A DNA stretch of 64,000 nucleotides from positions 404-64,403 of the forward strand of contig CACFAI010000005.1 of assembly GCA_902564265.1 (NCBI GenBank). The letters are read 5' to 3'. Under the pieces are notes generated by a model. It had not been told where the DNA came from, did no database searches, and saw nothing but the letters and a program-made list of their open reading frames with translations. Made by a program: the position numbers and the translations under genes. Positions 33,278-54,628 of this stretch are shown piece by piece (positions within the stretch are counted from its first letter, which is position 1; every line of letters begins with the position of its first letter). This DNA comes from an uncultured Pelagibacteraceae bacterium (lineage in GTDB: Bacteria; Pseudomonadota; Alphaproteobacteria; Pelagibacterales; Pelagibacteraceae).

Positions 33278-34030
33278 ATGTCAATTAATATGAATTCAAA
33301 AAAGATTAAAGCTCAATTTGCAAAAGACACTAACCCAAGAGTAGGCTTAATTGTTCTGTCAACTGACAACATGATAGAAAAAGATTTCTCAAAAGTCTTA
33401 AGTGATAAACCAGTAGATTTATATGTTAATAGAATTAAAAATTATAATCCTGTAACAGCTGAAAATTTAAAAAAAATGTCAGAAAACATCACTTCGGTTG
33501 CAGACAACATATTACCTGGTGAAAAAGTAGATTGTGTTGTTTTTGGTTGCACATCAGGAACAATAGTATCTGGTTTTGATAACATAAAAAAAAAAATTAA
33601 TGTAGCTAAACCAAATGCGTTAGTTACAGCCCCAAGTACTGCGGCTTTAAAGGCCCTTAAAAAAAAGAATATTAAAAGAATATCTGTAGTCACACCATAT
33701 ATTAAGTCTTTAAATGATGATGTTGTAAATTTTTTTAAAGAAAATAAATTTGAAATAGTTTCAAATACATATTTTGATATCGAGTCAGATGTAGATATTG
33801 GAAAGGTAGATCAAAATAAGTTATTTGAAATATTGTCTGAAATTGATCATAATCAAGCTCAGGCACTATTTGTTTCTTGTACTTCGCTACCAGTTTTAAA
33901 CATAATTGAAAAACTTGAAAAAAAATTAAATATGATCGTTTTATCGAGTAACCAAGCATTAATTTGGGAAACTCTAGAAAAAATAAATGAAAACAAATCC
34001 ATTACCGGATTTGGAAGTTTATTTAATTAA
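33278..34030 (+). CDS. Asp/Glu racemase / maleate isomerase family protein (EutA-like)
   Basis: GLIVLSTD, FGCTSG, TPY, VSCTSL, SSNQA; both catalytic Cys retained. Confidence 0.88.
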   Translation: MSINMNSKKIKAQFAKDTNPRVGLIVLSTDNMIEKDFSKVLSDKPVDLYVNRIKNYNPVTAENLKKMSENITSVADNILPGEKVDCVVFGCTSGTIVSGFDNIKKKINVAKPNALVTAPSTAALKALKKKNIKRISVVTPYIKSLNDDVVNFFKENKFEIVSNTYFDIESDVDIGKVDQNKLFEILSEIDHNQAQALFVSCTSLPVLNIIEKLEKKLNMIVLSSNQALIWETLEKINENKSITGFGSLFN

Positions 34031-34038
34031 TTTAATAT

Positions 34039-35205
34039 ATGAATTTCACAGTCAAAGAATATAAAAATCGTCTTAAAAAGGTTCAATTAGAAATGCAAAA
34101 AAAAGGAATTGAACTTCTTATTTCACAGGATACTGCAAACATAAACTATCTGACAGGATATGATGCTTGGTCTTTTTATTATTCACAATGTGTAATAGTT
34201 CATGTGAATTCTGATGAGCCACTATGTTTTGTTAGAGCTCAGGATGCTGGCGGTGCTTTTATAACTACCTATCTTAAAAAGGAAAATATCATTATATATG
34301 ACGAAAAATATATTCATACCTGGCCGACTCATCCTTATGATGCGTTAGTTGATTTAATAAAGAAAAAAAAGTGGGATAAAATTAATATAGGAGTAGAAAT
34401 GGATGCTCATTATTTCACAGCTTATTGTTATGAAAAGTTAAAAAAGGGATTACCAAACGCAAAAATTTTAGACTCTGAGAGATTAGTCAATTGGGTAAGA
34501 GTAGAAAAATCCATTGCTGAAATTGAATATATGAAAAAGGCAGCAACTATTTCTGAGATGGCGATGAAAACTGCAATGGAAACAATAAGTCCAGATGTAA
34601 GACAATGTGATGCTGTTGCTGAAATTCAAAGAACTCTATTTAGAGGTACCCCAGAATACGGTGGTGAATATGCAAGTATTGCAACTTTACTTCCTACTGG
34701 AAAAGGAACATCAGCTTCACATTTAACTGCTAGTGATAAAAAGTTTGTTAATGGGGAAGCAACAATTATTGAGTTGTCAGGTACATATAAAAGGTATCAT
34801 GCTCCAATGGCAAGAACAATTAACTTAGGGAAGCCAGATCAAAAAAAACTTGATGCTATGAAAGCAACTAATGAAGCTTTAGAGGAGGGTATTAACGCTA
34901 GTAAACCAGGTAATACCGCTAATGATGTTGCGGAAAAATTTTGGGGAGTCTTGGATAAGTATGGAATTAAAAAAGAATCTCGAACAGGTTACTCTATAGG
35001 TGTTGGGTATCCACCAGATTGGGGCGAACACACTTTAAATATCTACAAAGGAGATATGACTGAATTAAAACCTAATATCTGTTATCACATGATTGCTGTT
35101 ATGCAATTTGGTAATTGGGGAGTTGAGTCATCAGAGTCTATAAGGATAACTGAGAGTGGAAATGAACTTTTATGCAATTTTTCAAGAGATTTACACGTAA
35201 AATAA
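34039..35205 (+). CDS. M24 pita-bread hydrolase, ectoine hydrolase EutD/DoeA-like
   Basis: YLTGYDAWSFY, LVNWVR..KS, HLT, RYHAPMART, RTGYSIG..YPPDWGE; lacks the usual M24 metal ligands. Confidence 0.88.
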   Translation: MNFTVKEYKNRLKKVQLEMQKKGIELLISQDTANINYLTGYDAWSFYYSQCVIVHVNSDEPLCFVRAQDAGGAFITTYLKKENIIIYDEKYIHTWPTHPYDALVDLIKKKKWDKINIGVEMDAHYFTAYCYEKLKKGLPNAKILDSERLVNWVRVEKSIAEIEYMKKAATISEMAMKTAMETISPDVRQCDAVAEIQRTLFRGTPEYGGEYASIATLLPTGKGTSASHLTASDKKFVNGEATIIELSGTYKRYHAPMARTINLGKPDQKKLDAMKATNEALEEGINASKPGNTANDVAEKFWGVLDKYGIKKESRTGYSIGVGYPPDWGEHTLNIYKGDMTELKPNICYHMIAVMQFGNWGVESSESIRITESGNELLCNFSRDLHVK

Positions 35206-35247
35206 GTTCTTGAAATAGATCTCAACAAATGTTTTAAACCTTATCTT

Positions 35248-36336
35248 ATGTCAAAGAACTTAGATTTTGTTAAATTCGATAAAGTTGACAAAAGTTACGA
35301 TGGAAAAGTACTTGTTGTTAAAGATTTAAACCTAGACATTGCTGAAGGCGAGTTCATAACTATGTTAGGACCATCTGGATCAGGTAAGACAACTTGTTTG
35401 ATGATGTTAGCTGGTTTTGAAACCCCTACAAACGGAGAAATTTATTTAGATAAAAATCCAATTTCAAATATTCCCCCACACAAAAGAGGAATAGGAATGG
35501 TCTTTCAAAACTATGCCTTGTTTCCTCACATGACAGTATATGAAAATTTAGCCTTTCCTTTAAAGGTAAGAAAATTTCAAAAAGACGAGATTGATAAGAA
35601 AGTGGATAAAGCTCTTTCAATGGTATCGCTATCTGGTTTTGAACATAGAATGCCGGGACAGTTATCTGGTGGTCAACAACAAAGGGTAGCAGTTGCGAGA
35701 TCTTTGGTGTTTGATCCTCAATTAGTTTTAATGGACGAACCACTTGGAGCTTTAGATAAAAATTTAAGAGAGAGCATGCAATACGAAATTAAACATATTC
35801 ATGAAAGTATTGGGGTCACGGTAGTCTACGTAACACATGATCAAAGTGAAGCATTAACAATGTCTAATAGAATAGCAGTGTTCAATGATGGAAAAGTTCA
35901 ACAACTTTCATCACCAGACAAATTATACGAAGAGCCTGTAAATTCCTTTGTGGCTGAATTTATTGGTGAGAATAATACTTTTGCAGGGCTAGTAACCAAT
36001 ATGTCTGGTAAAGAATGTAAAGTTAAGCTTAATGATGGAACAGAAATAGTTGCAAATCCAATTTCAGTTAAGTCAAATGGAGACAAAACTACTGTATCTC
36101 TTAGGCCAGAGAGAGCTTTGATTAACACAAAAGAAAAAATGGACAATAACTTTAAAGGAAAAATTGAAGAAGTTATTTATCATGGAGATCATACTAGAGT
36201 AAGACTTGATCTACTCGGAAATAAAGAATTTATATTAAAAGTGCCTAATAGCTCTGCCAATATGGATATTAAAATGGGCAACCAAATTAATGTAAGTTGG
36301 AATAGCCGTGATGCTAGAGCTTTAGATCCAAAATAA
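35248..36336 (+). CDS. potA: PotA-like ABC transporter ATPase
   Basis: GPSGSGKT, FQNYALFPH, LSGGQQQR, DEPLGALD, TOBE tail. Confidence 0.9.
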   Translation: MSKNLDFVKFDKVDKSYDGKVLVVKDLNLDIAEGEFITMLGPSGSGKTTCLMMLAGFETPTNGEIYLDKNPISNIPPHKRGIGMVFQNYALFPHMTVYENLAFPLKVRKFQKDEIDKKVDKALSMVSLSGFEHRMPGQLSGGQQQRVAVARSLVFDPQLVLMDEPLGALDKNLRESMQYEIKHIHESIGVTVVYVTHDQSEALTMSNRIAVFNDGKVQQLSSPDKLYEEPVNSFVAEFIGENNTFAGLVTNMSGKECKVKLNDGTEIVANPISVKSNGDKTTVSLRPERALINTKEKMDNNFKGKIEEVIYHGDHTRVRLDLLGNKEFILKVPNSSANMDIKMGNQINVSWNSRDARALDPK

Positions 36337-36397
36337 ACCTCAGGTTTAATTTTCAATTATTTAATAAAATAAAGCCCTATTTTAGCCAAATGTCAGG

Positions 36398-36426
36398 TTG
36401 ACTCCTACATTATATATTGCTGTAAT
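36398..36426 (+). promoter_or_regulatory. Internal sigma70 promoter for the binding-protein gene
   Basis: TTGACT-17 bp-TGTAAT, followed by strong SD GGAGG. Confidence 0.7.
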
Positions 36427-36458
36427 TAGTTTTTATAAAACGTTTAAACGGAGGAATA

Positions 36459-37574
36459 ATGAAAAAACTAAGTAAATTGTTACTAGTTCTATCTTTCGCA
36501 CTTTCTATCAGCTCATCAGCATTTGCAGTTACAGTTGCATCATGGGGTGGAGCTTATACAGAGTCACAAAAGCTAGGATATGGTGACCCTACTGCTAAGA
36601 AACTTGGTGTCCCGATCAATTGGGTCGACTACTCAGGTGGATTATCAGAAATTAAAGCACAAAAAGAGGCTGGCAAAATTACGTGGGATATAATTGACGT
36701 ATTTGCTATGGACACTATCACTGGATGTGATGAAGGTTTATTTGTTGAATTTGATTTTGACAAAGACTTCCCACCAGCACCGGATGGAACTAAAGCGAGT
36801 AAAGACTTCTTTGCTCCTATGCCAAGTAAATGTGCTGTAGGAAACATTCTATATTCTTGGAACTACGCTTATAACACTAAGAATGTTAAAGGTACTCCAA
36901 AGACTATAAAAGATTTCTTTGACACTAAAAAATTCCCTGGAAAAAGAGCTATTTACAAAAGCGCTCTAACAAATTTAGAGATCGCTTTAGCTGCAGATGG
37001 AATTAAGCCAGGAAAAGGTGGAAAGAAAATCTACAAAGCTCTTAACACAGAAAAAGGTGTAAACAGAGCAATGAACAAGATCAAAGCATTATGCACAGAC
37101 CCTAACGGTGGATGTGTATTTTGGTCAGCAGGTGCACAACCACCAGAACTATTAGTTTCAGGTGAAGTTGTTATGGCAACTGGTTGGAACGGAAGATTCT
37201 TCAACGCTGAAATCGGTGAAGGTGCTCCAATCAAACAAGTTTGGGATGGTCAAGGTCTTGACTACGAATATTTCGTATTAGTTAAAGGTGGACCAAACGA
37301 AGCTGATGCTAAAAAAGCACTAGCAATGATGACAAGTACAGAAGGTTTAGCAGGAAGTGCAAAATACATTGCATATGCACCTTGGAGAAAATCATCACTT
37401 AAAGTTATGGCAGCAGGCGAGCCATGGTACAAAGATGGTAAGACTAACATGGTACCACAAATGCCAACTGCGCCAGCGAACACTAAAAATTACTTCTTAG
37501 TGGATCCAATATTCTGGGCTGATAACGGTACAGAACTTGGTGAAAAATGGGAAGCAATGAAAGCTGGTCTATAA
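36459..37574 (+). CDS. potD: PotD/PotF-like substrate-binding protein
   Basis: Signal peptide, SWGGAY, WD..D, WNGR; high-expression codon bias. Confidence 0.88.
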   Translation: MKKLSKLLLVLSFALSISSSAFAVTVASWGGAYTESQKLGYGDPTAKKLGVPINWVDYSGGLSEIKAQKEAGKITWDIIDVFAMDTITGCDEGLFVEFDFDKDFPPAPDGTKASKDFFAPMPSKCAVGNILYSWNYAYNTKNVKGTPKTIKDFFDTKKFPGKRAIYKSALTNLEIALAADGIKPGKGGKKIYKALNTEKGVNRAMNKIKALCTDPNGGCVFWSAGAQPPELLVSGEVVMATGWNGRFFNAEIGEGAPIKQVWDGQGLDYEYFVLVKGGPNEADAKKALAMMTSTEGLAGSAKYIAYAPWRKSSLKVMAAGEPWYKDGKTNMVPQMPTAPANTKNYFLVDPIFWADNGTELGEKWEAMKAGL

Positions 37575-37610
37575 TTTTAAGTTTTAAAGACTAAAATTAT
37601 ATATTATATT

Positions 37611-37640
37611 AAGGGCGGTTATTTATAGCCGCCCTTTTTT
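37611..37640 (+). terminator. Intra-operon terminator/stabilising hairpin after the binding protein
   Basis: AAGGGCGGTTA-TTTA-TAGCCGCCCTT plus T run, ending 4 bp before the permease ATG. Confidence 0.85.
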
Positions 37641-37644
37641 ATTT

Positions 37645-38898
37645 ATGAGCATTGAAACAGGAAAAATTTTAACAACAGACGGCATACCTCTTGAGGTAAG
37701 TCTTAAAAAAGCTGAAAGAAAAAATAAAATTAAAGCATTTCTTTTAGTAGCACCTCTCTTATTCTTTTTGCTTATTACATACATTTTCCCTATCGGCGAC
37801 ATGCTCATGAGGAGTGTGGATGATAAAATGGTTACCGAGATGTTGCCAAAAACATTTAAGTCAATGGAAAAATGGGATGGTAAAGAACTGCCGCCAGAAG
37901 AAGTTTTTGAGTCTTTTTATTTAGATTTTCAAAAACTTGTTGAAGAAAAACGAGATGGAAAACTTTCTACACAATTAAATTATACAAAGAATGGATTTAA
38001 AAGTATTTTAAAAAAATTACGAAGAAAAGCTAAAAATTTTGAGGAAGGAAATTACAAAGAACAAATAATGGCTGTTCACCAAAGATGGGCAGACGTTGAA
38101 TACTGGCGAGCCATACAAAGACGTGCTCCTGCTTATACAAGTCAAAAATATTTAAAAGGAATTGACATGTATAAAAATGAAGAGGGTAATATTGTAAGTG
38201 TAGAAGAGGATCGAAGAATTCATAGAATTTTATGGCTTAGAACTTTAGAGATAGCTTTCTTTGTAACTCTTTTATGTTTTTTAATGGCTTACCCAATAGC
38301 CCATCTCCTTGCTACCTTGCCAATGAAATATAGTAACCTATTAATGATTTGTGTACTTCTTCCATTTTGGACATCGTTATTAGTTAGAACTGCAAGTTGG
38401 ATGATACTCTTGCAGCAACAGGGAGTTGTTAACGATTTTTTTGTTATGATAGGATTGGTCGCTGACGATAATAGACCAGAAATGATGTTTAATAAAACCG
38501 GAACTTATGTAGCAATGACACAAATATTGTTGCCGTTTATGGTTTTACCTTTGTACAGTGTAATGAAAACAATATCCCCAAGTTTGATGAGAGCTGGAAA
38601 ATCTTTAGGAGGAACTCCATTCGTTGCTTTTTGGAAAGTATATTTTCCTTTAACGATTCCAGGTATTGGGGCAGGATGTTTACTGGTGTTCATTTTGGCG
38701 ATTGGATACTACATCACACCTGCATTAGTGGGAGGTGCATCAGGAACTTTAATTAGTAACCAAATCGCATTTCACATGAAAAGTACTCTTGATTGGAGTT
38801 TTGCTTCAGCAATGGGACTAATGTTACTTGCGGGAGTTTTAGCAATTTATTGGATCTACAATAAACTTGTTGGAGTAGATAATATAAAACTAGGATAA
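37645..38898 (+). CDS. potB: PotB-like permease with enlarged periplasmic loop
   Basis: LLPFWTSLLVR, LPFMVLPLY, EAA-like loop. Confidence 0.88.
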   Translation: MSIETGKILTTDGIPLEVSLKKAERKNKIKAFLLVAPLLFFLLITYIFPIGDMLMRSVDDKMVTEMLPKTFKSMEKWDGKELPPEEVFESFYLDFQKLVEEKRDGKLSTQLNYTKNGFKSILKKLRRKAKNFEEGNYKEQIMAVHQRWADVEYWRAIQRRAPAYTSQKYLKGIDMYKNEEGNIVSVEEDRRIHRILWLRTLEIAFFVTLLCFLMAYPIAHLLATLPMKYSNLLMICVLLPFWTSLLVRTASWMILLQQQGVVNDFFVMIGLVADDNRPEMMFNKTGTYVAMTQILLPFMVLPLYSVMKTISPSLMRAGKSLGGTPFVAFWKVYFPLTIPGIGAGCLLVFILAIGYYITPALVGGASGTLISNQIAFHMKSTLDWSFASAMGLMLLAGVLAIYWIYNKLVGVDNIKLG

Positions 38899-38900
38899 TT

Positions 38901-39755
38901 ATGGCATTACCAAAGTATACTGAGACACGTTATAGAGTTTGGCACTACTTCTATATTATTATTTGCACATGCGTATTTTTCTTTTTAATCGCACCTCTAT
39001 TCGTGATATTTCCATTATCCTTCAATGCCGAAGAATTTTTAAGTTTTTCTGAAGGAATGAAAAACCTAGATCCTGATGCATTTTCTTTAAGATGGTACAA
39101 AGATATGATTTACGGAACAAAAAACCCATGGGGTCTTGCAGCAAAAAATAGTTTTATCATCGCTATATTTGCAACACTCGGCTCAGTTATTTTGGGTACA
39201 GTTGCTGCATTAGGACTAAGCAGCAGACATATGCCTTACAAAGGATTAATTATGGCTACTTTAATTTCACCAATGATAGTGCCATTAATCATTTCTGGTG
39301 TTGCAATTTTTTTCTTTATGGCAAAAGCAGGACTTGCTGCTACACATACAGGAATTGTATTAGCACACATTATTTTAGGAACACCTTTCGTTGTAATTAC
39401 TGTAACAGCAACTTTATCAGGCTTTGACCACAGTGTTACAAGAGCTGCATCAAGCTTAGGTAGTGATCCAGTAAACACATTTATGAAAATTACATTACCA
39501 TTAATTCTGCCAGGAGTAATATCTGGAGGCTTGTTCGCCTTCGTGACATCTTTTGACGAAGTTGTTGTTGTTTTATTCTTAGCTGGTCTAGAAAATACAA
39601 CAATTCCAATTCAAATGTGGACGGGACTAAGAGAACAATTGAGCCCAACAATATTAGCTGTTGCGACATGTTTAATAATTTTATCTACATTAATTCTTGT
39701 TACAGCTGAGCTATTAAGACGAAGATCTGAAAGGCTCAGAGGAATAAATAGATAA
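38901..39755 (+). CDS. potC: PotC-like permease
   Basis: FSLRWY, PMIVP, SFDEVV, TIP. Confidence 0.88.
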   Translation: MALPKYTETRYRVWHYFYIIICTCVFFFLIAPLFVIFPLSFNAEEFLSFSEGMKNLDPDAFSLRWYKDMIYGTKNPWGLAAKNSFIIAIFATLGSVILGTVAALGLSSRHMPYKGLIMATLISPMIVPLIISGVAIFFFMAKAGLAATHTGIVLAHIILGTPFVVITVTATLSGFDHSVTRAASSLGSDPVNTFMKITLPLILPGVISGGLFAFVTSFDEVVVVLFLAGLENTTIPIQMWTGLREQLSPTILAVATCLIILSTLILVTAELLRRRSERLRGINR

Positions 39756-39758
39756 AAA

Positions 39759-41981
39759 ATGGAAATCAAAAAGGTTGTTGTAATAGGCTCTGGAACTATG
39801 GGTAGTGGAATTGCTGCGCATTTATGTAATGCGAATGTACCAGTTACTTTATTAGATCTTACAACTGACATTAGCACAAAGGCAAGAGAGCGAATATATA
39901 AATCAAGACCGCCATTGTTAATTGATAAATCAAAAATTGATAATATCAGAGTTGGCAATATCAACGATGATTTTAATGTTGTAAAAGAGGCAGACTGGAT
40001 AGTTGAAGCTGTAGTTGAAAGAATAGACATTAAACATCAAATTTACAAAAAAATCTTTGATAATAGAAAAGATGGAGCAATTGTTTCATCTAACACTTCC
40101 TCAATTCCAATTAAAATTCTATCCGAAAATATGACTGACGAGCAAAAAAAAGATTTTTGCATAACACACTTTTTTAATCCAGTTAGATACATGGGTTTGT
40201 TAGAAATAGTAAAAAATGAAAGTAATGATTTAAAAAAAATTAGTTCTTTGAAAGTCTTTTGTGAAAAAGAACTTGGTAAAGGAGCCATTGTTTGTAATGA
40301 CACGCCAGGCTTCCTTGGTAATAGAGTAGGAGTTTATGCAATGCAAGTTGCTATGACCGAAGCATTTAAAATGAAATTGACTATTGAAGAGGCTGATGCA
40401 GTGTTTGGGAGACCTATGGGAATACCTAAAACTGGAGTGTTTGGTTTATATGATCTAATTGGTATTGATTTGATGGCAGATGTTTTAAAAAGTTTTGTAA
40501 AAGAACTTCCAGGAACTGACAAATTTCAAGAGGTTGCTAAAGAGATCCCGCTTGTTAAAAAATTAATTGATTCTGGCTATACCGGAAGAAAAGGTAAGGG
40601 TGGCTTTTACAGAATGAAAAAATTAGAAAACCAAAAAATTTTGGAGGCAATTAACCTTCAAACTGGAGAATATTCTGAATCTTTAAAAATTGATCTCAAA
40701 ATTGATACTGTAGACCTTAACACTATCATCAACAGGAAAGACAAGTATGGAGAATATGCTTGGTCAGTAATTTCTCAAATCATTAAATACGCATCATCTT
40801 TAGTTCCGGGCATAACTAATAAATTCAATGACATTGATGAAGCTATGAGATTAGGATTTAATTGGGCTATGGGACCCTTCGAAATGCTTAAATCAATTGG
40901 TGTAAAAAATTTTTTTAATCGTGTTGATGAATTTAAGGGAAATAAATTTTTAGAGGAACTTTCAGTAAAAAAAGATGAAAACTTTTACGGTGAAAGACAA
41001 ATTTACACCGAAATAGAAACACTTGGCAAGGTAAAGCCCAAAGCTTTAAGTTTGGATAAAAACAAGTCAGCGGAGATTTATAGGTTTAAGGATTTTAATA
41101 TTGTAGAGTTTACCACTAAAGCATGTGCGCTAGATTATGACTCTATGGATAGTTTAAAAAAAGCAACAGATAAACCTCTGATAATTATAAATGAAAGTAT
41201 GCAATTTTCTGCTGGTGTTAATTTGTCATATACAATGAACTTCGCTGAAAAGGGGGATTTTAAATCTATAGAAAAATTTATTAAATATTTTCAAGATACT
41301 TGTAAACAACTTAAGTATTCAAAATTTCCTGTTGTCTCAGCACCTTCTGGGCTTACGTTAGGTGGTGGATTTGAAGTAATGGTTCAAAGTAACTTTGTAA
41401 CATCTCACACAAATATAGTAGTAGGTTTAGTCGAGACAATGGTTGGACTTGTACCCGCTGGTGGTGGATGCAAAGAAATGCTGTGGAGATGGGCTCAAAG
41501 TGAGGAGTCTAAGAGAGATTTAGATTTTGCACCACTTAAAGTATTTGAAATTATAGGTTATGGAAAAACTGCATCTTCTCCAATTGAAGCCGAGCCCTTA
41601 AAATATTTGTTACCAACAGATAAAAAGATAATGAATAGGAATAGCTTATTTTCAGAGGCAAAAAAAATTATAGAGGAAAATAAAAATTTTAAACCAAGTA
41701 ATGAGTGTACTTTTAAACTATCAGGAAAATCAGTAAGAGAAAAAATGTTTAAAACTTTAGATAAACTTTATAATGATAAAATTATCTTTGATCATGGTAT
41801 GACGGTAGGAAAAGAACTTGCCAATGTTTTAAGTGGTGGTGATACGAATTCTGATAAAATATTGACTGAGGATGATATTTACAAATTAGAACTAGACTCT
41901 TTTATGAGATTAATTGAAAATAAAAAAACCCAAGATAGAATAAAGCATACATTGTCTACTGGCAAACCTTTGGTCAATTAG
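39759..41981 (+). CDS. 3-hydroxyacyl-CoA dehydrogenase / enoyl-CoA hydratase fusion (FadN-like)
   Basis: GSGTMG, EAVVE, SSNTS, HFFNP, FLGNR; C-terminal crotonase FSAG.NL, GGG.E, GLVPAGGG. Confidence 0.9.
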   Translation: MEIKKVVVIGSGTMGSGIAAHLCNANVPVTLLDLTTDISTKARERIYKSRPPLLIDKSKIDNIRVGNINDDFNVVKEADWIVEAVVERIDIKHQIYKKIFDNRKDGAIVSSNTSSIPIKILSENMTDEQKKDFCITHFFNPVRYMGLLEIVKNESNDLKKISSLKVFCEKELGKGAIVCNDTPGFLGNRVGVYAMQVAMTEAFKMKLTIEEADAVFGRPMGIPKTGVFGLYDLIGIDLMADVLKSFVKELPGTDKFQEVAKEIPLVKKLIDSGYTGRKGKGGFYRMKKLENQKILEAINLQTGEYSESLKIDLKIDTVDLNTIINRKDKYGEYAWSVISQIIKYASSLVPGITNKFNDIDEAMRLGFNWAMGPFEMLKSIGVKNFFNRVDEFKGNKFLEELSVKKDENFYGERQIYTEIETLGKVKPKALSLDKNKSAEIYRFKDFNIVEFTTKACALDYDSMDSLKKATDKPLIIINESMQFSAGVNLSYTMNFAEKGDFKSIEKFIKYFQDTCKQLKYSKFPVVSAPSGLTLGGGFEVMVQSNFVTSHTNIVVGLVETMVGLVPAGGGCKEMLWRWAQSEESKRDLDFAPLKVFEIIGYGKTASSPIEAEPLKYLLPTDKKIMNRNSLFSEAKKIIEENKNFKPSNECTFKLSGKSVREKMFKTLDKLYNDKIIFDHGMTVGKELANVLSGGDTNSDKILTEDDIYKLELDSFMRLIENKKTQDRIKHTLSTGKPLVN

Positions 41982-42630: not shown

Positions 42631-42639
42631 TTTTAAAAT

Positions 42640-43371: not shown

Positions 43372-43422
43372 TTTTTGAATATAAACATATTAGAATTTAA
43401 TATCATATGTTACATTAAAGAA

Positions 43423-43548
43423 ATGAAAAAAAAGAAAAAGAGAGAGTCAGATCCTAAATCAGTCCCAAATCTTTTTACTAGCAAATACATTGTGTATTAT
43501 TATGGGTTTTTCTGGACGGTTCTAATATTGATTGTTGTATTGTCGTGA
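43423..43548 (+). CDS. Unannotated 41-aa small membrane protein
   Basis: MKKKKKRESDPKSVPNLFTSKYIVYYYGFFWTVLILIVVLS; TGA overlaps the agmatinase GTG (GTGA). Confidence 0.6.
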   Translation: MKKKKKRESDPKSVPNLFTSKYIVYYYGFFWTVLILIVVLS

Positions 43549-44507
43549 AAAAAAAAAATAAAAATCCTATTCAACCTGTAAGTGGAACAGTAGTTCCAAG
43601 ATTTGCTGGTCCTAGTACTTTTGCGAGGTTACCGGAGTTAAGAGATGTAGAAAGTTGCGATGTAGCAATCGTTGGCATTCCTTTTGATGCAGGCACAAGC
43701 TATAGACCAGGTGCAAGATTTGGTCCTCAAAGCATAAGACAAGCTTCAAGACATTTAAGAACCAACTACCACCCAAATTATGATGTTGAACCATTTATAG
43801 TTCAGCAAGTTGCTGACGCTGGGGATATAACTTGTAATCCATTTAATATTGATGAAGCAATAAAACAAATTGAAAAAGGTGCTTACGACTTACTTAAAAA
43901 AACTGGTAGAATTATCAGCATGGGAGGAGATCATACGATAGCATTTCCACTTTTAAGAGCAATCAACAAAATAAATGGAGGACCGGTAGCACTTGTTCAT
44001 TTCGATGCTCACTTAGATACATGGGATACTTACATGGGTGCCCCCTATACTCATGGAACACCTTTTCGTAGAGCTAGAGAAGAAAACTTATTTTTAGATG
44101 ATGCATCAATGCACGTTGGTATAAGAGGACCGCTTTACAGTAGAGATGATCTTAAAAACGATGAAAGTTTTGGATTTAAAACAATTCATTGCGATGAATT
44201 CCAAAGTGAGGGAGTTGATAAAATTGTTCAAAGAATAAGAAAAAGAGTAGGTAACAATCCATTATATTTATCAATAGATATAGATGTCCTTGATCCAGCA
44301 TATGCACCAGGTACGGGAACACCTGAGATAGCAGGTATGTCTACAAGAGAAATGGTAAACGTCATAAGAGGATTATCAGGAATGAAACTGATTTCGGCGG
44401 ATGTTGTGGAGGTCTCACCTGCTTATGATCACGCTGAGGTAACATCATTAGCCGCAGCAACAATAATCTATGAAATCACTAATTTATTTGCAAAAGTAAA
44501 AGGATAA
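43545..44507 (+). CDS. speB: Agmatinase / ureohydrolase family (guanidinobutyrase-like possible)
   Basis: GARFGP, GGDHT, DAHLD, HGT, SIDIDVLDP..APGTGTPE, VEVSP. Confidence 0.85.
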   Translation: MKKKNKNPIQPVSGTVVPRFAGPSTFARLPELRDVESCDVAIVGIPFDAGTSYRPGARFGPQSIRQASRHLRTNYHPNYDVEPFIVQQVADAGDITCNPFNIDEAIKQIEKGAYDLLKKTGRIISMGGDHTIAFPLLRAINKINGGPVALVHFDAHLDTWDTYMGAPYTHGTPFRRAREENLFLDDASMHVGIRGPLYSRDDLKNDESFGFKTIHCDEFQSEGVDKIVQRIRKRVGNNPLYLSIDIDVLDPAYAPGTGTPEIAGMSTREMVNVIRGLSGMKLISADVVEVSPAYDHAEVTSLAAATIIYEITNLFAKVKG

Positions 44508-44521
44508 GTTAATTTCCAGTC

Positions 44522-45958
44522 ATGTCAGACAAAAAAAAATTTTATATTAATGGTAAGTGGGTTTCACCAAAAAGTAATAAAAGTATTAAAGTAATTAATC
44601 CAGCAACCGAGGACGTATGTGCAGAAATATCATTAGGTTCAAAAGAAGATGTTAATGATGCAGTATTGTCTGCAAAAGAAGCTTTCAAAACATGGGCATT
44701 CTCATCAAAAAAAGAAAGATTAGAACCATTAGAAAAATTATATGAATTATATAAAAAAAGATGGTCAGATATAGCAGAGACCATAACTACAGAAATGGGA
44801 GCTCCAAAGGATTTTTCAACAAAATTGCAAGCAGGGACAGGTGCTGCCCATATAAAAACTTTTATTAGATACCTAAAAGAATTTGATTTTGAGAAACCAC
44901 TAGGGGATCATGCAAAAAATCAAAGACTTATTTATGAACCAAAAGGTATTTGTGCTTTAATAACGCCTTGGAACTGGCCAATGAACCAAACTTGCCTGAA
45001 AGTAATGCCTGCTATTGCATCAGGCTGCACCATGATTCTAAAACCATCAGAAGTTGCTCCACTATCGGCAATGATATTAACTGAATTAATAGATGAAGCA
45101 GGTTTTCCTCCAGGAGTCTTCAATTTAGTAAATGGAGATGGTGCAACAACTGGAGATGCTTTAACAAGCCATCCAGATATAAACATGATCTCATTTACAG
45201 GATCAACAAGAGCTGGGGCTTTAATATCGGAAAATGCTGCTAAAGATTTTAAAAGAGTAAGTTTAGAACTTGGTGGCAAAGGAGCAAATATAATTTTTAA
45301 AGATGCAGATCCAGACGCCATTGAAAGAGGTGCTCTAAGATGTTTCAGAAATTCTGGACAATCATGCAATGCCCCAACAAGAATGCTTGTTGAAAAAAGT
45401 ATGTATGATGAAGCGGTTGAAAGAGTAAAAAAATTTGCAAACAGTATGAAAGTAGGAGATCCAAAAAAAGAAGGCGAGCACATTGGTCCAGTCGTATCCG
45501 AAATACAATTTGAAAAAATACAATCACTTATTCAAAAAGGTATCGACGAGGGTGCTAAACTTGTAGCAGGGGGAGTAGGAAAACCTGATGGAATAAACAA
45601 AGGTTACTTTGTAAAACCAACAGCCTTTGCTGATGTTAATAATCAAATGGAAATTGCAAGAACTGAAATTTTTGGTCCAGTGCTATCAATTATACCTTTT
45701 GAAAATGAAGAAGAAGCTATAAGTATTGCAAATGATACTGATTACGGTCTAACAAATTACATTCAAACTAAAGATAAAGAAAAAGCGAATAGAGTTGCAA
45801 GAAGACTTAGATCTGGAATGGTAGATGTTAATGGGGCTGGTATTGCAGTTGATGCACCTTTTGGGGGCTTTAAACATTCTGGTATTGGTCGTGAAGCAGG
45901 AAGAGAAGGTTTATTGGAATTTTTAGAAGTTAAATCAGTTGGAGGATGGGTTAATTAA
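44522..45958 (+). CDS. Aldehyde dehydrogenase
   Basis: PWNWP, KPSE, FTGS, LELGGK, GQSC, EIFGPV. Confidence 0.95.
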   Translation: MSDKKKFYINGKWVSPKSNKSIKVINPATEDVCAEISLGSKEDVNDAVLSAKEAFKTWAFSSKKERLEPLEKLYELYKKRWSDIAETITTEMGAPKDFSTKLQAGTGAAHIKTFIRYLKEFDFEKPLGDHAKNQRLIYEPKGICALITPWNWPMNQTCLKVMPAIASGCTMILKPSEVAPLSAMILTELIDEAGFPPGVFNLVNGDGATTGDALTSHPDINMISFTGSTRAGALISENAAKDFKRVSLELGGKGANIIFKDADPDAIERGALRCFRNSGQSCNAPTRMLVEKSMYDEAVERVKKFANSMKVGDPKKEGEHIGPVVSEIQFEKIQSLIQKGIDEGAKLVAGGVGKPDGINKGYFVKPTAFADVNNQMEIARTEIFGPVLSIIPFENEEEAISIANDTDYGLTNYIQTKDKEKANRVARRLRSGMVDVNGAGIAVDAPFGGFKHSGIGREAGREGLLEFLEVKSVGGWVN

Positions 45959-47141
45959 ATTTTGACTTTTCTTTAACACCATCTAAAAATTTAAGGCATT
46001 TTTTTAATTCTTCTAGCTTAATAAATTCATCAACTTTGTGTGCTTGTTCAATTGATCCAGGTCCACAAACAACTGTACTAATCCCTATTTCTTGAAAAAG
46101 GCCTGCCTCTGTACCAAAAGACACAACTTCGCGTGAATTGTCTCCAGTAATGCTAGATACTAATTCACAGGCTTCAGAATTTTTTTCTCTATCAAAACCT
46201 ATGATTTCTCCGATAACTTCCTTTCGTATCTCAGATTTTGGATAAACTTTTTGCATTTCTGGAAGTAGCTCTTTCTCTATGAATTTATCTATTTCGTTAT
46301 TAACAAATACACCGTCCTCTTTTACAACTGGTCTTAATTCCCAATCGACATTACATTTGTCAGCAATTACATTTCTTGCAATTCCACCTGAAATACCACC
46401 TATTTGCAGTGTAGTATATGGTGGGTTAAATACAGAATTTTTAGGTTTTCTTTTTTTTAAAACTTCTCTTAGTTGCATAAGTTTTTGAATAAATTTCGAA
46501 GCATACTCTACTGCATTAACTCCTTTGTCAGGCTGTGAACCATGACCAGCAAGACCATGAAAATGTGTTGTGTATTCATAACAACCTTTGTGAGCATCAA
46601 TTATTTTCATATTAGTTGGCTCTCCAACAATACACAAAGAGTCTTTTATATTTCTTTTTTTTAATTCATCTATTAAAAGGGGCGCTCCTTGGCACGCTGT
46701 TTCTTCATCAAAAGTGAAAGAAAAATGGATATCTCGATCTAATTTTTCAGAAGAAAAAACTGGTGCATAGGCCAACACACAAGCCAAAAAACCCTTCATA
46801 TCACACGATCCTCTTCCAAACAGTTTCCCATCTTTGATTGTTGCTTTGAAGGGGTCTGTCGACCAACTTTTTGTTACAGGCACCACATCAGTATGACCCG
46901 AAAAAATTATAGATTTTTTTCCATTCTTTTTTTTTGATTTTAAAGTTGAAAATAGGTTCACTCTTTTTTTATCATTATCAAATACTTTAAATGATGATGC
47001 TCCGACATCACCTAAAATTTTTTCACAGTAATTAATAATCGAGTTATTATCTTCACCTGAAATTGTTTTAAACTCTATCAAATCAGAGAGAATTTTAATT
47101 GAATCGTTATATAATTTATCTGAATTATTTTCTGTACTCAT
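45951..47141 (-). CDS. argE: M20 acetylornithine-deacetylase-family amidohydrolase
   Basis: SGHTDVVP, GRGSCDMKG, DEE, GEPT, GTEAG, QAHKVDE. Confidence 0.85.
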   Translation of the reverse strand: MSTENNSDKLYNDSIKILSDLIEFKTISGEDNNSIINYCEKILGDVGASSFKVFDNDKKRVNLFSTLKSKKKNGKKSIIFSGHTDVVPVTKSWSTDPFKATIKDGKLFGRGSCDMKGFLACVLAYAPVFSSEKLDRDIHFSFTFDEETACQGAPLLIDELKKRNIKDSLCIVGEPTNMKIIDAHKGCYEYTTHFHGLAGHGSQPDKGVNAVEYASKFIQKLMQLREVLKKRKPKNSVFNPPYTTLQIGGISGGIARNVIADKCNVDWELRPVVKEDGVFVNNEIDKFIEKELLPEMQKVYPKSEIRKEVIGEIIGFDREKNSEACELVSSITGDNSREVVSFGTEAGLFQEIGISTVVCGPGSIEQAHKVDEFIKLEELKKCLKFLDGVKEKSKFN

Positions 47142-47168
47142 TCGTAAAAAGAATTATATATTAATTCC

Positions 47169-47510: not shown

Positions 47511-47598
47511 TTTGTTAGTAAATTTGCGACAAATGATAAATTTATTTAATTATTTTATTATGTTATGTCTGCTTACTTTTTACTCAAAATAATTTGAT

Positions 47599-50268: not shown

Positions 50269-50270
50269 CA

Positions 50271-50912: not shown

Positions 50913-52200
50913 AAATTATCTTTATTTTATTTTATTTTTATTTCTTTTTGAATGTTCATTAAATCCTAATTCAAAATTTTGGACTAAAGAAAAAAAAATT
51001 TTTGTAGATAAAAGCTCAAGCTCTGTTCTATCGAAGGATAAAGATTACTCGTTAAATGAATTTAATCAAAACTTTAAAATTTCACTGCCCAAAAATTTAA
51101 AAATAGAGACAAATCAGCAATTAAATAATGACGGATTTATTAACTTTGATGCAGATCTCGAAAAGGTATCTAAATATAATTTTAAAACAATAAAATCTTT
51201 TTCGAATTTTGAACCTGAAATATTGTTAGATAAAGATCACTTGTTTTATTTTGATAGCAATGGTTCTATACTTAAATTTGACAACAAGTCTAATATATTA
51301 TGGAGAAAAAATTACTACTCAAGACAAGACAAAAAATTACAGCCAATTTTATTTTTTGGAACAAGTGGTGATGATTTATTCGTTGTTGATAGTATAGCAA
51401 ATTATTATGTAATTAACAAAAATACAGGAAATCTAAAATGGAAAAAGAAACATTCTTCATCATTCAATTCACAAATAAAAATATTTAAGAACAAGGCTTT
51501 AGTTATTGATATGGAAAATCAATTAAGATGTTTTTCTTTAGAGTCAGGTGAACTTTTGTGGTCTGTAAAAACTCAACAATCACTTTTAAGATCTCAAAAA
51601 AAACAATCTTTGATATTAAAAGATAACAATGTTTATTTTAGTAACTCTATAGGGGATGTTACCGCAGTAAACATTTCAAATGGAAAAATAATTTGGCAAT
51701 CACCAACTCAATCAAATATTTCTTTTGGTAGCACCTATTTTTTGAAATTATCAGATATTATATCTGATGAAAGCTCGATTTTTTTCTCTGATAATAACAA
51801 CCAATTTTTTTCTTTAGATTTATTAACAGGCTCGATTAATTGGAAGCAAGATTTTAGTTCAGAACTCAGACCGGCGTTGGTCGGTGATTACTTGGTTACA
51901 ATTTCAGACAACGGTTTGCTTATAATTATGAATAAACAGACAGGACAGATAATAAGGATCAATGATTTATTAAAAAATATTAAAGATAAGAGAAAAAAAA
52001 ATTTTCAACCCATAGGGTTTTTAGTTGGTAAATCTTATATTTACCTCTCAACAAGGAATGGAAGAATTTTAGTTGTGAATTTTAAAGAAGGTAAAATTGA
52101 AAAAATGGTTAAATTGGACAATAATAAACTTCAAAGACCTATTTATTTCAATAAAAGTTTATATATTGCAAAGGATAACTCGATTATTAAATTAAATTAA
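50905..52200 (+). CDS. BamB-like PQQ beta-propeller lipoprotein
   Basis: Signal ending in Cys (FECS); repeated G...W propeller motifs. Confidence 0.8.
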   Translation: MTKNYLYFILFLFLFECSLNPNSKFWTKEKKIFVDKSSSSVLSKDKDYSLNEFNQNFKISLPKNLKIETNQQLNNDGFINFDADLEKVSKYNFKTIKSFSNFEPEILLDKDHLFYFDSNGSILKFDNKSNILWRKNYYSRQDKKLQPILFFGTSGDDLFVVDSIANYYVINKNTGNLKWKKKHSSSFNSQIKIFKNKALVIDMENQLRCFSLESGELLWSVKTQQSLLRSQKKQSLILKDNNVYFSNSIGDVTAVNISNGKIIWQSPTQSNISFGSTYFLKLSDIISDESSIFFSDNNNQFFSLDLLTGSINWKQDFSSELRPALVGDYLVTISDNGLLIIMNKQTGQIIRINDLLKNIKDKRKKNFQPIGFLVGKSYIYLSTRNGRILVVNFKEGKIEKMVKLDNNKLQRPIYFNKSLYIAKDNSIIKLN

Positions 52201-52628
52201 TGCTTCTTAAAATTCTTGAAAAATTAGGTAGAAAAAAAATTGTTTTAGATAGAGGCCCTTCCCATCCCGAATATGATAAAGCCAAACCTTGGATGAATAG
52301 ATATTATCTAATTTTTAGACATAGACCTAAGTGGTTTCCTTTTAATATTTTAATACACGAAATGTTAGATGATGATCACGGAGAAGGTGTTCACAATCAT
52401 CCTTTCCCGTTTATGACAATAATACTTAGAGATGGATATTTCGAAACTCTTAAAAGTGGAAGATATTGGAGACCAGCTGGTTATATTGGTTTTAGATCTG
52501 CAAACACACATCATAGGATCGATATTAAGCCAGGAACGAAACCTATTACAATATTTATAGCAGGTCCCTATGGATTAAGAAAAGGACCAAGATCAGAATA
52601 TGGAATTGATTTTAAAACTAAAAAATGA
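52200..52628 (+). CDS. Cupin-fold metalloprotein of unknown function
   Basis: IH...DDH..VHNHPF...IL.DGY.E ... HHRI ... TIFIAGP. Confidence 0.7.
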   Translation: MLLKILEKLGRKKIVLDRGPSHPEYDKAKPWMNRYYLIFRHRPKWFPFNILIHEMLDDDHGEGVHNHPFPFMTIILRDGYFETLKSGRYWRPAGYIGFRSANTHHRIDIKPGTKPITIFIAGPYGLRKGPRSEYGIDFKTKK

Positions 52629-53044
52629 AACAAAAGTTTTTTGAATTAAAACTAAAGACAAACGGACAAAAATTATATAATTTTACAGATCAAACTATTA
52701 GTTGGATCGATGAAAATTCTTTTAATGATGGAATTTTAAATTTAAGTATCCAGCACACAAGCGCATCCTTAATTGTTCAAGAAAATGCTGATCCTGATGT
52801 ACAAACAGATTTAATTAATTATTTTGATAAACTAGTTCCTATGGATGAAAAGTCCTATATTCACAAATCAGAAGGAAAAGATGATATGCCAGCGCACATT
52901 AAATCTGCTCTAACAAATAATCAAATTTCTTTAAGTGTAAAAAAAAAAGAATTATTATTGGGTACCTGGCAAGGAATTTATTTGTTTGAACACAGAATTG
53001 AAAGTCAAGTTAGAAAAATTATTCATCACTTTATTGGCGATTAA
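52625..53044 (+). CDS. yjbQ: YjbQ/UPF0047 family protein (secondary thiamine-phosphate synthase)
   Basis: HTSASL..QENADPDV, DMPAHIKS, LGTWQGIYLFE. Confidence 0.9.
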   Translation: MKQKFFELKLKTNGQKLYNFTDQTISWIDENSFNDGILNLSIQHTSASLIVQENADPDVQTDLINYFDKLVPMDEKSYIHKSEGKDDMPAHIKSALTNNQISLSVKKKELLLGTWQGIYLFEHRIESQVRKIIHHFIGD

Positions 53045-53487
53045 ATGTGAGGATCGTATGCCCATTGTAAAATGGCTTGCCTTTGTCTTCTTCTGCAAAT
53101 TAAATTTCCTTTCTCACAATTTTTTTCAATAGCGGTTACATGCCTTCGAAAATTTTTCCATCTTTTAATTTGAGTTATGTCTACCTTTGGTATTCTTCTG
53201 CCCATTGAGAATCTACAATACCATTGGAACCAACCTAATGGATCTTCCTTGAATATCCATCCTTTCTCAATCCAATGTTCTCTGGAAAGTCCAGCTTTCA
53301 CTTTAAATCTATTTAAATTAACATCAAAAGTCTTACTTATTTTAGCTTTTACAAACCAACTTTTTGGATACTCTTTAATGTTATTTCCAAAGTAAGATCC
53401 ACCAAAAACTCCCAACTCAAGCATTTTTTTTGGAGAAAGTTCCGGTTTAAATAATCTATAAATTTCTGTGTCACTTATTTTTTTCAT
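53041..53487 (-). CDS. Conserved hypothetical Trp/Arg-rich protein
   Basis: GVFGGSYF, DPLGWFQWYCRF..GRR, QIKRW, RQAILQWAYD; follows dpaL after 4 bp. Confidence 0.75.
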   Translation of the reverse strand: MKKISDTEIYRLFKPELSPKKMLELGVFGGSYFGNNIKEYPKSWFVKAKISKTFDVNLNRFKVKAGLSREHWIEKGWIFKEDPLGWFQWYCRFSMGRRIPKVDITQIKRWKNFRRHVTAIEKNCEKGNLICRRRQRQAILQWAYDPHI

Positions 53488-53491
53488 AAAA

Positions 53492-54628
53492 TTAAATCAA
53501 TTTTTTTCCTTCACTTAATAACTTCTGGTAAAGCTCTATATCCGCAGATCCCTCACAACCTATCAATAATATATTTGAATTTTCATTTATTTCTAGAGCA
53601 CTCATTGTTTCATCATTGTTACAACATGAAATTAAACTTGTGATCCCAGGTGTTGAACATTCACCTCCCTCTATTGAAATATCACATACTACTTTATCTG
53701 CTAACATTGCTACAGTCTGTGAGACAAATTTATCTGAAACACTGACACAACTGTTTACAGAATTTTTTAGTATTTGCCATGGGACTAATGACACCTCTCC
53801 ACAAGACATGCCACCCATTATACTTTCTTTCTTAATATCTACACTTGTAGGAGTATTATTTTCAATACTTTGCATTACACAATTTGCATTTTCAGGTTCA
53901 ACAATAATAATTTTTGGTACCTTTTTGAAATAATTAGCTACACCAGCTACTAAACCTGCCGCCATACCACCGACACCAGCCTGTAAAAAAATATGTGTGA
54001 TATATTCATTGGTTTGAAATGAAATTTCTTTTATTATTGTTGAATATCCAGCCATTGTTAGTTTTGGGACGAGCTCATAATCTGGCCACGCTACATCTTG
54101 AATAATTTCCCAATTATTTTTTTTTGACTCTTCCTTGCAAAAATTAAGAGAATCTTCATAATTTCCTTTAACTCTGATTACTTCAGCATTCAAATTCCTC
54201 ATTTCTTCAGCTCTTGTTTCGCTTACATTCTCACTAATAAAAATTTTACAATTTAGTCCTAAATTTTTCGCTCCCCAAGCAACTGATTTTCCATGATTTC
54301 CTGCTGTAGCTGTTGAAACAATAACGTCTTTTTTTCCTTTAGTTATTTTTTCCACAGCATAAGCCCCACCTAGGGCTTTAAAAGATTTAAGACCAAATCT
54401 CTTTGATTCATCTTTATAAAATATATTTTTTAATTTTAATTCATTAGAAAGTTTGTTTAAACTTTCTAAAGGCGTAGGTTGATACTTTTGCCATTTTGAA
54501 ATCGTTTTATAGGCATCTGCTAATAAATCACTATTTAAGATTTTTAATATTTTTGAACGGTCAAATTCAAAATTTTCATTATTAATAAATTTTGTAAATT
54601 TTTGATTAAGGTATAGGTTTTTATGCAT
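53492..54628 (-). CDS. dpaL: Diaminopropionate ammonia-lyase (PLP fold II)
   Basis: KDES.RFGLKSFKALGG, TAGNHG, QDVAW, QAGVGG, MGGMSCGE. Confidence 0.88.
   Translation of the reverse strand: MHKNLYLNQKFTKFINNENFEFDRSKILKILNSDLLADAYKTISKWQKYQPTPLESLNKLSNELKLKNIFYKDESKRFGLKSFKALGGAYAVEKITKGKKDVIVSTATAGNHGKSVAWGAKNLGLNCKIFISENVSETRAEEMRNLNAEVIRVKGNYEDSLNFCKEESKKNNWEIIQDVAWPDYELVPKLTMAGYSTIIKEISFQTNEYITHIFLQAGVGGMAAGLVAGVANYFKKVPKIIIVEPENANCVMQSIENNTPTSVDIKKESIMGGMSCGEVSLVPWQILKNSVNSCVSVSDKFVSQTVAMLADKVVCDISIEGGECSTPGITSLISCCNNDETMSALEINENSNILLIGCEGSADIELYQKLLSEGKKLI

Follow-up and report, generated by a model that had tools for sequence, protein, structure and literature searches.

A dispersed SAR11 gene set as a candidate variant of the alphaproteobacterial ectoine-type catabolic route

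Does a region of a SAR11 genome in which homologues of ectoine-degradation enzymes lead into an ATP-binding cassette (ABC) importer encode a catabolic route and, if so, for which compound? The region lies in a stretch of 64,000 nucleotides, here called the window, from an uncultured Pelagibacteraceae bacterium (assembly GCA_902564265.1, contig CACFAI010000005.1, positions 404 to 64,403 of the forward strand). The window has about 30% G+C and is part of a 0.92-Mb draft genome that is an estimated 79% complete; complete genomes of the same genus measure 1.2-1.5 Mb. The genes that concern us encode a EutA-like protein, a EutD/DoeA-like hydrolase, a Pot-type importer, an ArgE-family M20 deacylase and a lyase of the DpaL (diaminopropionate ammonia-lyase) family. 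An earlier reading of this DNA (the original prediction) joined them into a route one carbon shorter than that of ectoine, starting from the five-membered ring compound 2-methyl-imidazoline-4-carboxylate (DHMICA) as an unrecognised marine metabolite. We know of no natural source of DHMICA. The genes that were listed are confirmed as open reading frames at their positions, and family models assign each of them (Table 1).

From gene content, orthology, gene neighbourhoods and residue signatures, we hypothesize that the region holds a variant, dispersed and specific to SAR11, of the ectoine/hydroxyectoine-type catabolic route of Alphaproteobacteria, a reading to which we give an even chance of being right. 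Under this hypothesis, an ectoine-family cyclic-amidine osmolyte would enter through an osmolyte ABC importer of broad specificity, the metal-free M24 EutD-like hydrolase would open its ring to yield an N-acetyl-diamino acid, the two-Cys EutA-like protein may act as a racemase or epimerase, the 'ArgE' M20 enzyme would remove the acetyl group in lieu of EutE, and the DpaL-type lyase would probably carry out a β-elimination/deamination, as EutB-type or Eut-associated DpaL-like enzymes may do elsewhere. The substrate would be ectoine, 5-hydroxyectoine or a close analogue; like every catalytic step just named, it is predicted from the four kinds of observation above. What is new is a predicted variant of an ectoine-type pathway rather than a demonstrated new metabolite, and for the five-ring compound we have no positive evidence.

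The EutD-like hydrolase and the adjoining importer

The hydrolase aligns with the solved DoeA of Halomonas elongata (6twk) at 329 bits and, as estimated from the alignment, about 45% identity. In a tree against EutD and DoeA, which the original prediction proposed as a check, it is placed inside the EutD clade: in our quick IQ-TREE phylogeny of 71 rows, the Pelagibacterales EutD-like sequences form a clade (support 100) within a EutD group of 29 rows (Shimodaira-Hasegawa-like approximate likelihood ratio test, SH-aLRT, 90), which includes one sequence flanked by EutB, EutC and EutE (L072) and one accompanied by ArgE, Ehu, EutB and EutC (L074). We also compared 14 Pelagibacterales sequences with 54 other EutD homologues; of the 70 positions that are at least 93% conserved, the window protein keeps 58, including R66, H228, E245, R259, R315, H350 and E366. 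Alignment to the prolidase of Pyrococcus furiosus (1pv9) equates H228 with His192 and E245 with Asp209, and puts Pro256 and Ile320 at the second and third metal-ligand positions; DoeA likewise has a Pro at the second. The prolidase ligands, which we take to be D209, D220, H284, E313 and E327, have the right letters in this alignment. With its two domains, the EutD-like protein has the creatinase-type M24 fold and lacks the ligands of the dinuclear metal site. A DddP-type lyase of dimethylsulfoniopropionate (DMSP) was considered for the M24 enzyme and rejected, given a score of 30 bits and the missing metal ligands.

Gene counts across the order were made in 300 sampled genomes, comprising 200 of the window's own genus (g1), 60 of a sister family (f2) and others from further genera of its own family; the tallies of EutD-like, EutE, M24-paralogue, DpaL and ArgE-type genes take in a single unpublished genome, G111, which enters no other result. 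The EutD-like gene was found in 192 of the 200 own-genus genomes and 53 of the 60 from the sister family. Among the other genera of its own family it was found in none of five, and in genus g5 two of 21 genomes gave a match, one an orthologue and the other a weak paralogue match. Word-indexed homologue searches were dominated by near-identical SAR11 proteins, and it was the representative library and the genome searches that were informative.

Other M24 proteins recur around these genes. A second paralogue, 22-23% identical to the EutD-like protein, stands in or beside canonical Eut clusters of three genomes (L139:8769-9857 in G524; L102 near 16123 in G402; L066 near 14514 in G436), and in G524 it lies between an Asp-less DpaL-like lyase and EutA. 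A further paralogue (28-30% identical) is found elsewhere in many SAR11 genomes of the same genus.

Upstream, and 8 bp from the hydrolase gene, is the EutA-like gene, whose product has Cys91 (in GCTSG) and Cys201 (in SCTSL) aligned with the Cys pair of maleate isomerase; it is absent in one same-genus genome that retains the EutD-like gene (L015). Downstream, as the original prediction had it, the pair leads into a Pot-type ABC importer: a gap of 42 bp separates the EutD-like gene from that of the PotA-type ATPase, which is followed by a binding protein and two permeases.

The binding protein belongs to Pfam SBP_bac_8 and matches no NCBIfam model; the structures to which it aligns closely (8jv1-8jv4) were deposited as "spermidine/putrescine-binding periplasmic protein". 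It is probably orthologous to SAR11_1336 (potD) of 'Candidatus Pelagibacter ubique' HTCC1062, as inferred from single copy and synteny: it is the sole gene of its kind at a conserved position in the genus loci examined, and in HTCC1062 ygeX (SAR11_1317) lies about 19 gene numbers from potD, a spacing that matches the window. Clifton et al. 2024 (PMC11485210) report that SAR11_1336 binds a range of osmolytes, among them glycine betaine (Kd 2 nM) and DMSP, and corresponds to a broad osmolyte transporter measured in cells. By analogy, we read the importer as an osmolyte importer; a polyamine importer was considered and set aside as improbable, since SAR11_1336, the nearest characterised protein, is reported to bind glycine betaine and DMSP and not polyamines (PMC11485210).

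The permeases are 83-96% identical across the genus. Pot-type transporters also stand beside EutD clusters in G526 (L097), G486 (L136/L093) and G479 (L076), with PotA 60-70% and the binding protein 38-40% identical to those of the window, which suggests an ectoine-linked branch of PotD-like binding proteins, drawn from three unrelated alphaproteobacterial genomes. The strong hairpin between the binding-protein and permease genes fits an excess expression of the binding protein.

The ArgE-type deacylase and the DpaL-family lyase

The original prediction that EutE, EutBC and a DoeD-type transaminase are absent holds for the window, where seeds from a canonical cluster verified with NCBIfam gave no tblastn match to EutE, EutB or EutC. 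It had also pointed to the rest of the genome as a place where eutE or doeD might be found. EutE had no match in the 79% complete own genome, and among 96 genomes of the genus that are at least 95% complete not one had it above cut-off; searches for EutC (ornithine-cyclodeaminase family) in three complete genomes of the genus and in G006 of the sister family found none. No transaminase of 2,4-diaminobutyrate (DABA) scored above cut-off, each genome having one or two general class-III aminotransferases. Given these searches across the genus, the absences hold at genus level and not for the draft alone.

A candidate for the missing deacetylase is the M20 enzyme named ArgE. ArgJ (TIGR00120) exceeds its cut-off both in the draft itself and in four complete genomes of the genus, which makes ArgE dispensable for arginine synthesis; each genome of the genus has only two M20 genes, of which "ArgE" is one. 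Orthologues of the window ArgE (46-51% identity) stand beside EutD in EutE-less clusters of four genomes from different alphaproteobacterial families (G420, G402, G425, G345), adjacent to EutD or separated from it by EutB alone, and in a fifth genome (G626) about 6.5 kb separate an ArgE-type M20 gene from EutD. EutB is present in all five clusters, EutC in four and EhuABCD in two. In every one of these genomes, the EutD-associated M20 protein is the best match to the SAR11 ArgE (47-51% identity; 381-427 bits, against 121-301 for the next paralogue). In a metagenome contig (L028), Ehu-type transporter genes, EutD (637 bits), a EutB-like gene and the gene for an ArgE-type M20 enzyme stand in a row.

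ArgE-type M20 genes were found in 182 of the 200 own-genus genomes, in none of the 60 from the sister family and, among the other genera of the own family, in G258 (g5) alone. G258 is also the lone genome from another genus with the EutA-EutD-importer block, from which its ArgE-type gene is two genes away; the other 20 g5 genomes have neither an ArgE-type gene nor a EutD-like orthologue. In the sister family, an M20D amidohydrolase stands directly upstream of the EutD-like gene, with DoeB2 as its best specific model (299-309 bits, cut-off 550). Neither the own genome nor any of four complete genomes of the genus yielded this M20D gene, and the ArgE-type and M20D genes have complementary distributions. 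From these observations, we conclude that the SAR11 "ArgE" is probably a member of a Eut-cluster deacylase subfamily that replaces EutE; this is our strongest new result, and a limited search of the ectoine literature found no description of an ArgE-type, EutE-less variant.

The lyase presents a more divided picture. It is below the cut-offs of two DpaL models (TIGR03528, 264 bits against 532; TIGR01747, 246 against 274) and above that of a third (Table 1). The lysine motif for pyridoxal 5'-phosphate (PLP), SFK, is present, and in the motif ATAGNHG Ala109 (codon 54302-54304) replaces the Asp of TDGNHG, which is kept in 28 of 29 other alphaproteobacterial sequences of the DpaL group. In structural work on E. 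coli DpaL, this Asp is reported to be the base for the D-isomer. Ordinary alphaproteobacterial DpaL sequences read ATDGNHG (one ASDGNHG, one ASSGNHG), EutB sequences STGNHG, SAR11 DpaL ATAGNHG, and a clade of Eut-associated lyases ASAGNHG. In the tree, SAR11 DpaL is nested, on a long branch, within ordinary DpaL (support 99) and the Eut-associated clade is separate (support 100), which implies that the change from Asp to Ala arose twice.

One Eut-associated lyase is that of G006 of the sister family, whose tight operon encodes a SnoaL protein, a GbcA-like Rieske oxygenase, an EamA transporter, a PLP enzyme, an M20D amidohydrolase and a EutA-like protein, with the EutD-like gene three genes on. 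The best model for the PLP enzyme is DpaL (253 bits; EutB 71 bits), and it is 31% identical to the window DpaL. Its orthologues (45-48% identical) adjoin EutA, canonical EutD and EutE in G625 and G524; in G486 such a lyase adjoins EutA and a Pot-type transporter inside a EutBCDE cluster, and in G402 one lies about 13 kb from the Eut cluster. The canonical EutD proteins beside Eut-associated lyases score 746-756 bits. Other sister-family genera have the G006-type lyase at other loci, the copy in G008 being beside a EutA-like gene and a Rieske oxygenase.

Window-type DpaL (E <= 1e-60) was found in 184 of the 200 own-genus genomes, in none of the 60 from the sister family and in none of the other own-family genera. 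Five genomes that are at least 99% complete, drawn from three genera without the EutD-like gene, gave no DpaL-family gene. We take the link of the lyase to be real for the family and weaker for the window gene, with moderate support for DpaL in the pathway. The link between hydrolase, deacylase and lyase that the original prediction drew is, in part, borne out: ArgE orthologues beside EutD and a lyase clade in Eut clusters speak for it, but the window DpaL is outside that clade. That the three would act in one pathway is supported, strongly for ArgE and moderately for DpaL, by these orthologies and neighbourhoods.

The Rieske oxygenase of the sister family deserves mention in its own right. 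GbcA-like, it is co-operonic with M20D and with either the EutD-like or the EutA-like gene (L061:14625-19557 in G004; L063:8706-14143 in G006), partnered by an aldehyde dehydrogenase resembling succinate-semialdehyde dehydrogenase in one genus and by the SnoaL protein in another. It might take the place of the missing transamination of DABA by an oxidative step, or else point to a methylated substrate. In the window's genus only homologues of 29-32% identity were found, and no orthologue.

Weighing the proposed route

Several observations weigh against an ectoine-type route. The EutA-like and EutD-like proteins both fall short of the cut-offs of their models (TIGR02990 and the TIGR02993 equivalog; Table 1), the scores for TIGR02993 forming a continuum from 826 to 390 bits across the Alphaproteobacteria with no gap at the cut-off. 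Six near-invariant EutD positions, three Trp and one Arg among them, are altered in nearly all 14 Pelagibacterales sequences. In window numbering, these are position 63 (W in other EutD proteins; C or L in Pelagibacterales; C63 in the window), 65 (G; V; V65), 231 (W; A, with W retained in 2 of 14; A231), 334 (S; N; N334), 336 (R; Y, S or L; Y336) and 356 (W; Q; Q356). The sister sequence from G479 has the canonical residue at all of them except 231, and even the M24 paralogues of 22-23% identity have W231, R336 and W356. Position 231 comes three residues past the His of catalytic type, prolidase Arg295 aligns at positions 334-336, and position 356 falls between the fourth and fifth prolidase ligand positions; it is from such neighbouring active-site elements, and not from coordinates, that we place the six in the pocket. 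In creatinase, Arg64, His232 and Arg335, which we take to bind and turn over the substrate carboxylate, would equate to R66, H228 and position 336. Such a signature points to a different substrate or to an altered mode of binding; with these six changes, ectoine itself may not be the substrate. In addition, with neither a DABA transaminase nor EutC found, the route past the diamino acid is undefined.

The arrangement of the genes counts on the same side. The original prediction cautioned that they are spread over 21 kb and are not one operon, a caveat that stands: ArgE is 11 kb and DpaL 18 kb distant, and the genes that separate them and the importer, for a peptidyl-prolyl isomerase (PPIase), a metallopeptidase, the agmatinase-family protein, an aldehyde dehydrogenase, aconitase, BamB and a UPF0047 protein, are mostly housekeeping. 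Synteny across the genus may come from a gene order that is stable in these genomes, and not from function. The window DpaL is not an orthologue of the Eut-associated lyase clade. Co-occurrence of dpaL with eutA and eutD, on which the original prediction leaned, is seen at genus level, but 15 of 18 same-genus genomes without a EutD-like orthologue retain DpaL, and in 13 the EutD-like gene is present with DpaL not shown; some apparent absences (for example of the EutD-like gene, L064) are contig ends. In G137 (L062, G137:C3:136000-155900), the whole EutA-like/EutD-like/importer/PPIase/metallopeptidase block is lost, and the FadB-like, agmatinase-family, aldehyde dehydrogenase and ArgE genes are retained in place, plus DpaL.

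One way to read these facts is that the EutA-like/EutD-like/importer operon is the sole functional unit, ArgE and DpaL acting independently (in the turnover of other N-acyl amino acids and in diaminopropionate or serine detoxification) and lying near through stable gene order. The housekeeping genes between the parts would fit this, as would the genes that G137 keeps after losing the importer block, the partly independent presence and absence within the genus, and the nesting of the window DpaL among ordinary DpaL sequences. We nevertheless regard it as a minority possibility: ArgE is orthologous to the EutD-associated M20 proteins of five families in a genus that has ArgJ, the ArgE-type and M20D genes have complementary distributions, the catalytic Asp was lost convergently in the window DpaL and in the Eut-embedded clade, and no DpaL-family gene was found in the genera lacking the EutD-like gene. 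It is also conceivable that the EutD-like protein has left the ectoine family and hydrolyses another imported nitrogen osmolyte (a creatine-type guanidino or amidino compound, or another cyclic or N-acyl amino acid), with the M20 enzyme and the lyase finishing that pathway. In its favour are the broad specificity of the importer, the loss of Arg at 336 and of Trp at 231 and 356, which even distant M24 paralogues keep, and the GbcA-like Rieske, SnoaL and aldehyde dehydrogenase proteins of the sister family, which are outside any described ectoine route. Yet all the nearest relatives, whether by sequence or in the tree, are of EutD type, the models for DddP, creatinase-type enzymes and prolidase give far lower scores, and the partner families (EutA-like, DoeB2-like M20D, ArgE-type M20) are those of ectoine clusters; we consider such a departure unlikely.

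DpaL chemistry requires a β leaving group, which DABA lacks, and this favours the five-ring route of the original prediction, in which DHMICA would be opened by the EutD-like hydrolase to N-acetyl-2,3-diaminopropionate, deacetylated by ArgE to diaminopropionate and cleaved by DpaL to pyruvate and two ammonium. The last enzyme is DpaL-family by its best NCBIfam match in both Pelagibacterales lineages, the EutD-like pocket differs from the canonical one at the six positions, DABA transaminase and EutC were not found, and EutD-like and DpaL-family genes co-occur at genus level. However, 3-hydroxy-DABA from hydroxyectoine would also offer the β leaving group that a DpaL-type enzyme needs, and it fits the Eut-associated DpaL-like clade, which stands beside high-scoring canonical EutD and EutE; the ArgE-type orthologues sit with EhuABCD, EutB and EutC, and window-type DpaL persists without the EutD-like gene in many genomes. 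DHMICA itself has been described only as a synthetic analogue (PMC5924519). With the relatives of these enzymes in ordinary ectoine/hydroxyectoine clusters, we do not retain the one-carbon-shorter substrate and hold the route from DHMICA to be very unlikely. A wider form, in which Pelagibacterales would convert an ectoine-like cyclic amidine, by ring opening and deacylation, to a β-substituted α-amino acid (2,3-diaminopropionate or 3-hydroxy-2,4-diaminobutyrate), and an L-specific, Asp-less DpaL-type lyase would turn this into a 2-oxo acid and ammonium, seems quite unlikely. For the variant of the ectoine/hydroxyectoine route that we prefer, ectoine or hydroxyectoine as substrate is favoured by the related enzymes, all of which are in clusters with EhuABCD, EutB, EutC or EutE, by the related Pot-type transporters next to canonical EutD in G526, G486 and G479, and by the β leaving group of 3-hydroxy-DABA; a different analogue is favoured by the pocket signature and by the Rieske, SnoaL and aldehyde dehydrogenase genes of the sister-family operons.

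Among the heterotrophs of the surface ocean, SAR11 is the most abundant. If our preferred reading is right, part of the marine flux of ectoine-family nitrogen and carbon would be assigned to it, and a very highly expressed osmolyte importer would gain a second role. Ectoine is among the largest single contributors to the carbon excreted by the phytoplankton tested (PMC13012070), and a limited literature search found no report of ectoine catabolism in SAR11. The alphaproteobacterial ectoine pathway would also acquire two unrecognised parts, a deacetylase of ArgE type in place of EutE and, paired with EutA, a DpaL-like lyase that lacks the Asp, and the annotations "acetylornithine deacetylase" and "diaminopropionate ammonia-lyase" that these genomes carry may be substantively wrong. 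Were the five-ring version true, a cell dependent on pyruvate precursors would gain pyruvate and two nitrogens from the route.

Gene arrangement and relation to known systems

Table 1. Features of the window discussed in the text, with position, strand and family assignment
Feature	Position	Strand	Assignment or remark
EamA-family membrane transporter	32366..33220	-	Pfam EamA 92.5 bits; divergent from EutA-like gene
EutA-like two-Cys protein, Asp/Glu racemase/maleate isomerase/arylmalonate decarboxylase superfamily	33278..34030	+	Pfam Amdase 79 bits; TIGR02990 199 bits (cut-off 318)
EutD/DoeA-like metal-free M24 (creatinase-type) hydrolase	34039..35205	+	Creatinase_N + Peptidase_M24; TIGR02993 450 bits (cut-off 613)
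PotA-type ABC ATPase	35248..36336	+	TIGR01187 384 bits (cut-off 356)
Periplasmic binding protein, SAR11_1336 (potD)-type	36459..37574	+	Pfam SBP_bac_8; 593 bits to PDB 8jv1-8jv4
Terminator-like hairpin	37611..37636	+	11-pair stem with 6 G-C, then T run; pattern match alone
Two ABC permease genes	37645-38898, 38901-39755	+	Pfam BPD_transp_1
FadB-like 3-hydroxyacyl-CoA dehydrogenase/enoyl-CoA hydratase fusion	39759..41981	+	Pfam 3HCDH_N, 3HCDH, ECH
Agmatinase-family gene and aldehyde dehydrogenase	43545-45958		Overlap by 8 bp with end of convergent ArgE gene
ArgE-family M20 deacylase	45951..47141	-	NF005710 441 bits (cut-off 412); TIGR01892 357 bits (cut-off 298)
Conserved hypothetical gene, 148 aa, directly downstream of DpaL	53041..53487	-	No Pfam family even at E = 10
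DpaL-family PLP lyase	53492..54628	-	NF006058 391 bits (cut-off 276)

The gene for the FadB-like fusion starts 3 nt past the second permease gene and encodes a dehydrogenase domain ahead of a weak hydratase domain; the model that it matches best, that of the staphylococcal FadB type, gives 494 bits (cut-off 999), and the gene is missing in the otherwise similar block of G258 (L023). The agmatinase-family protein (88-91% identical) and the aldehyde dehydrogenase (78-83%) are unusually conserved across the genus, and some same-genus genomes have a second copy of the dehydrogenase, 59% identical, directly upstream of the EutA-like gene (L018, L019). An EamA gene, like the one divergent from the EutA-like gene here, is also found inside the G006 operon, flanked by the genes for the Rieske oxygenase and the DpaL-like lyase.

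The 148-aa gene beside DpaL has thousands of marine homologues that belong to no family, with many invariant Trp, Cys and Arg residues, and is missing from that position in some same-genus genomes. We rejected its reading as a GNAT protein, there being neither a family match at E = 10 nor a named homologue; its AlphaFold model is poor (predicted local distance difference test, pLDDT, 45). A promoter scan found sites no more numerous than in shuffled controls.

Among known systems, the DoeB2-type (M20D) ectoine pathway, reportedly that of halotolerant methylotrophs (NCBIfam NF038260) and one with an alternative deacetylase for N-acetyl-DABA, bears on the sister family, whose M20D protein upstream of the EutD-like gene resembles DoeB2 yet stays below the cut-off of its model, and whose operon adds a Rieske oxygenase and an aldehyde dehydrogenase or DpaL-like lyase. 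DpaL/YgeX of Escherichia coli and Salmonella is of the same family as the SAR11 lyase (NCBIfam PRK08206, tree) and shares the SFK motif, but the SAR11 enzymes differ in the change from Asp to Ala in TDGNHG and in their long branch. The binding protein of the window has its gene position and family in common with SAR11_1336 of HTCC1062, the orthology having been drawn from these and not from the name.

The canonical EutD/DoeA ectoine pathway shares with the window a EutA-like/EutD-like pair beside an osmolyte importer, a hydrolase of the EutD clade and, as we predict it, the logic of ring opening followed by deacetylation. The window differs in having no EutE/DoeB, EutB, EutC, EnuR, AsnC or dedicated Atf/DoeD, in its Pot-type importer where canonical clusters have Ehu, Ueh or Tea, in the spread of its genes over 21 kb and in the six changed EutD positions. 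The EutE-less ArgE-type clusters keep a EutD with the canonical pocket, as well as EutB, whereas the window ArgE is 11 kb from its EutD-like partner; their M20 enzyme is orthologous to the window ArgE, and it stands in the deacetylase position next to EutD.

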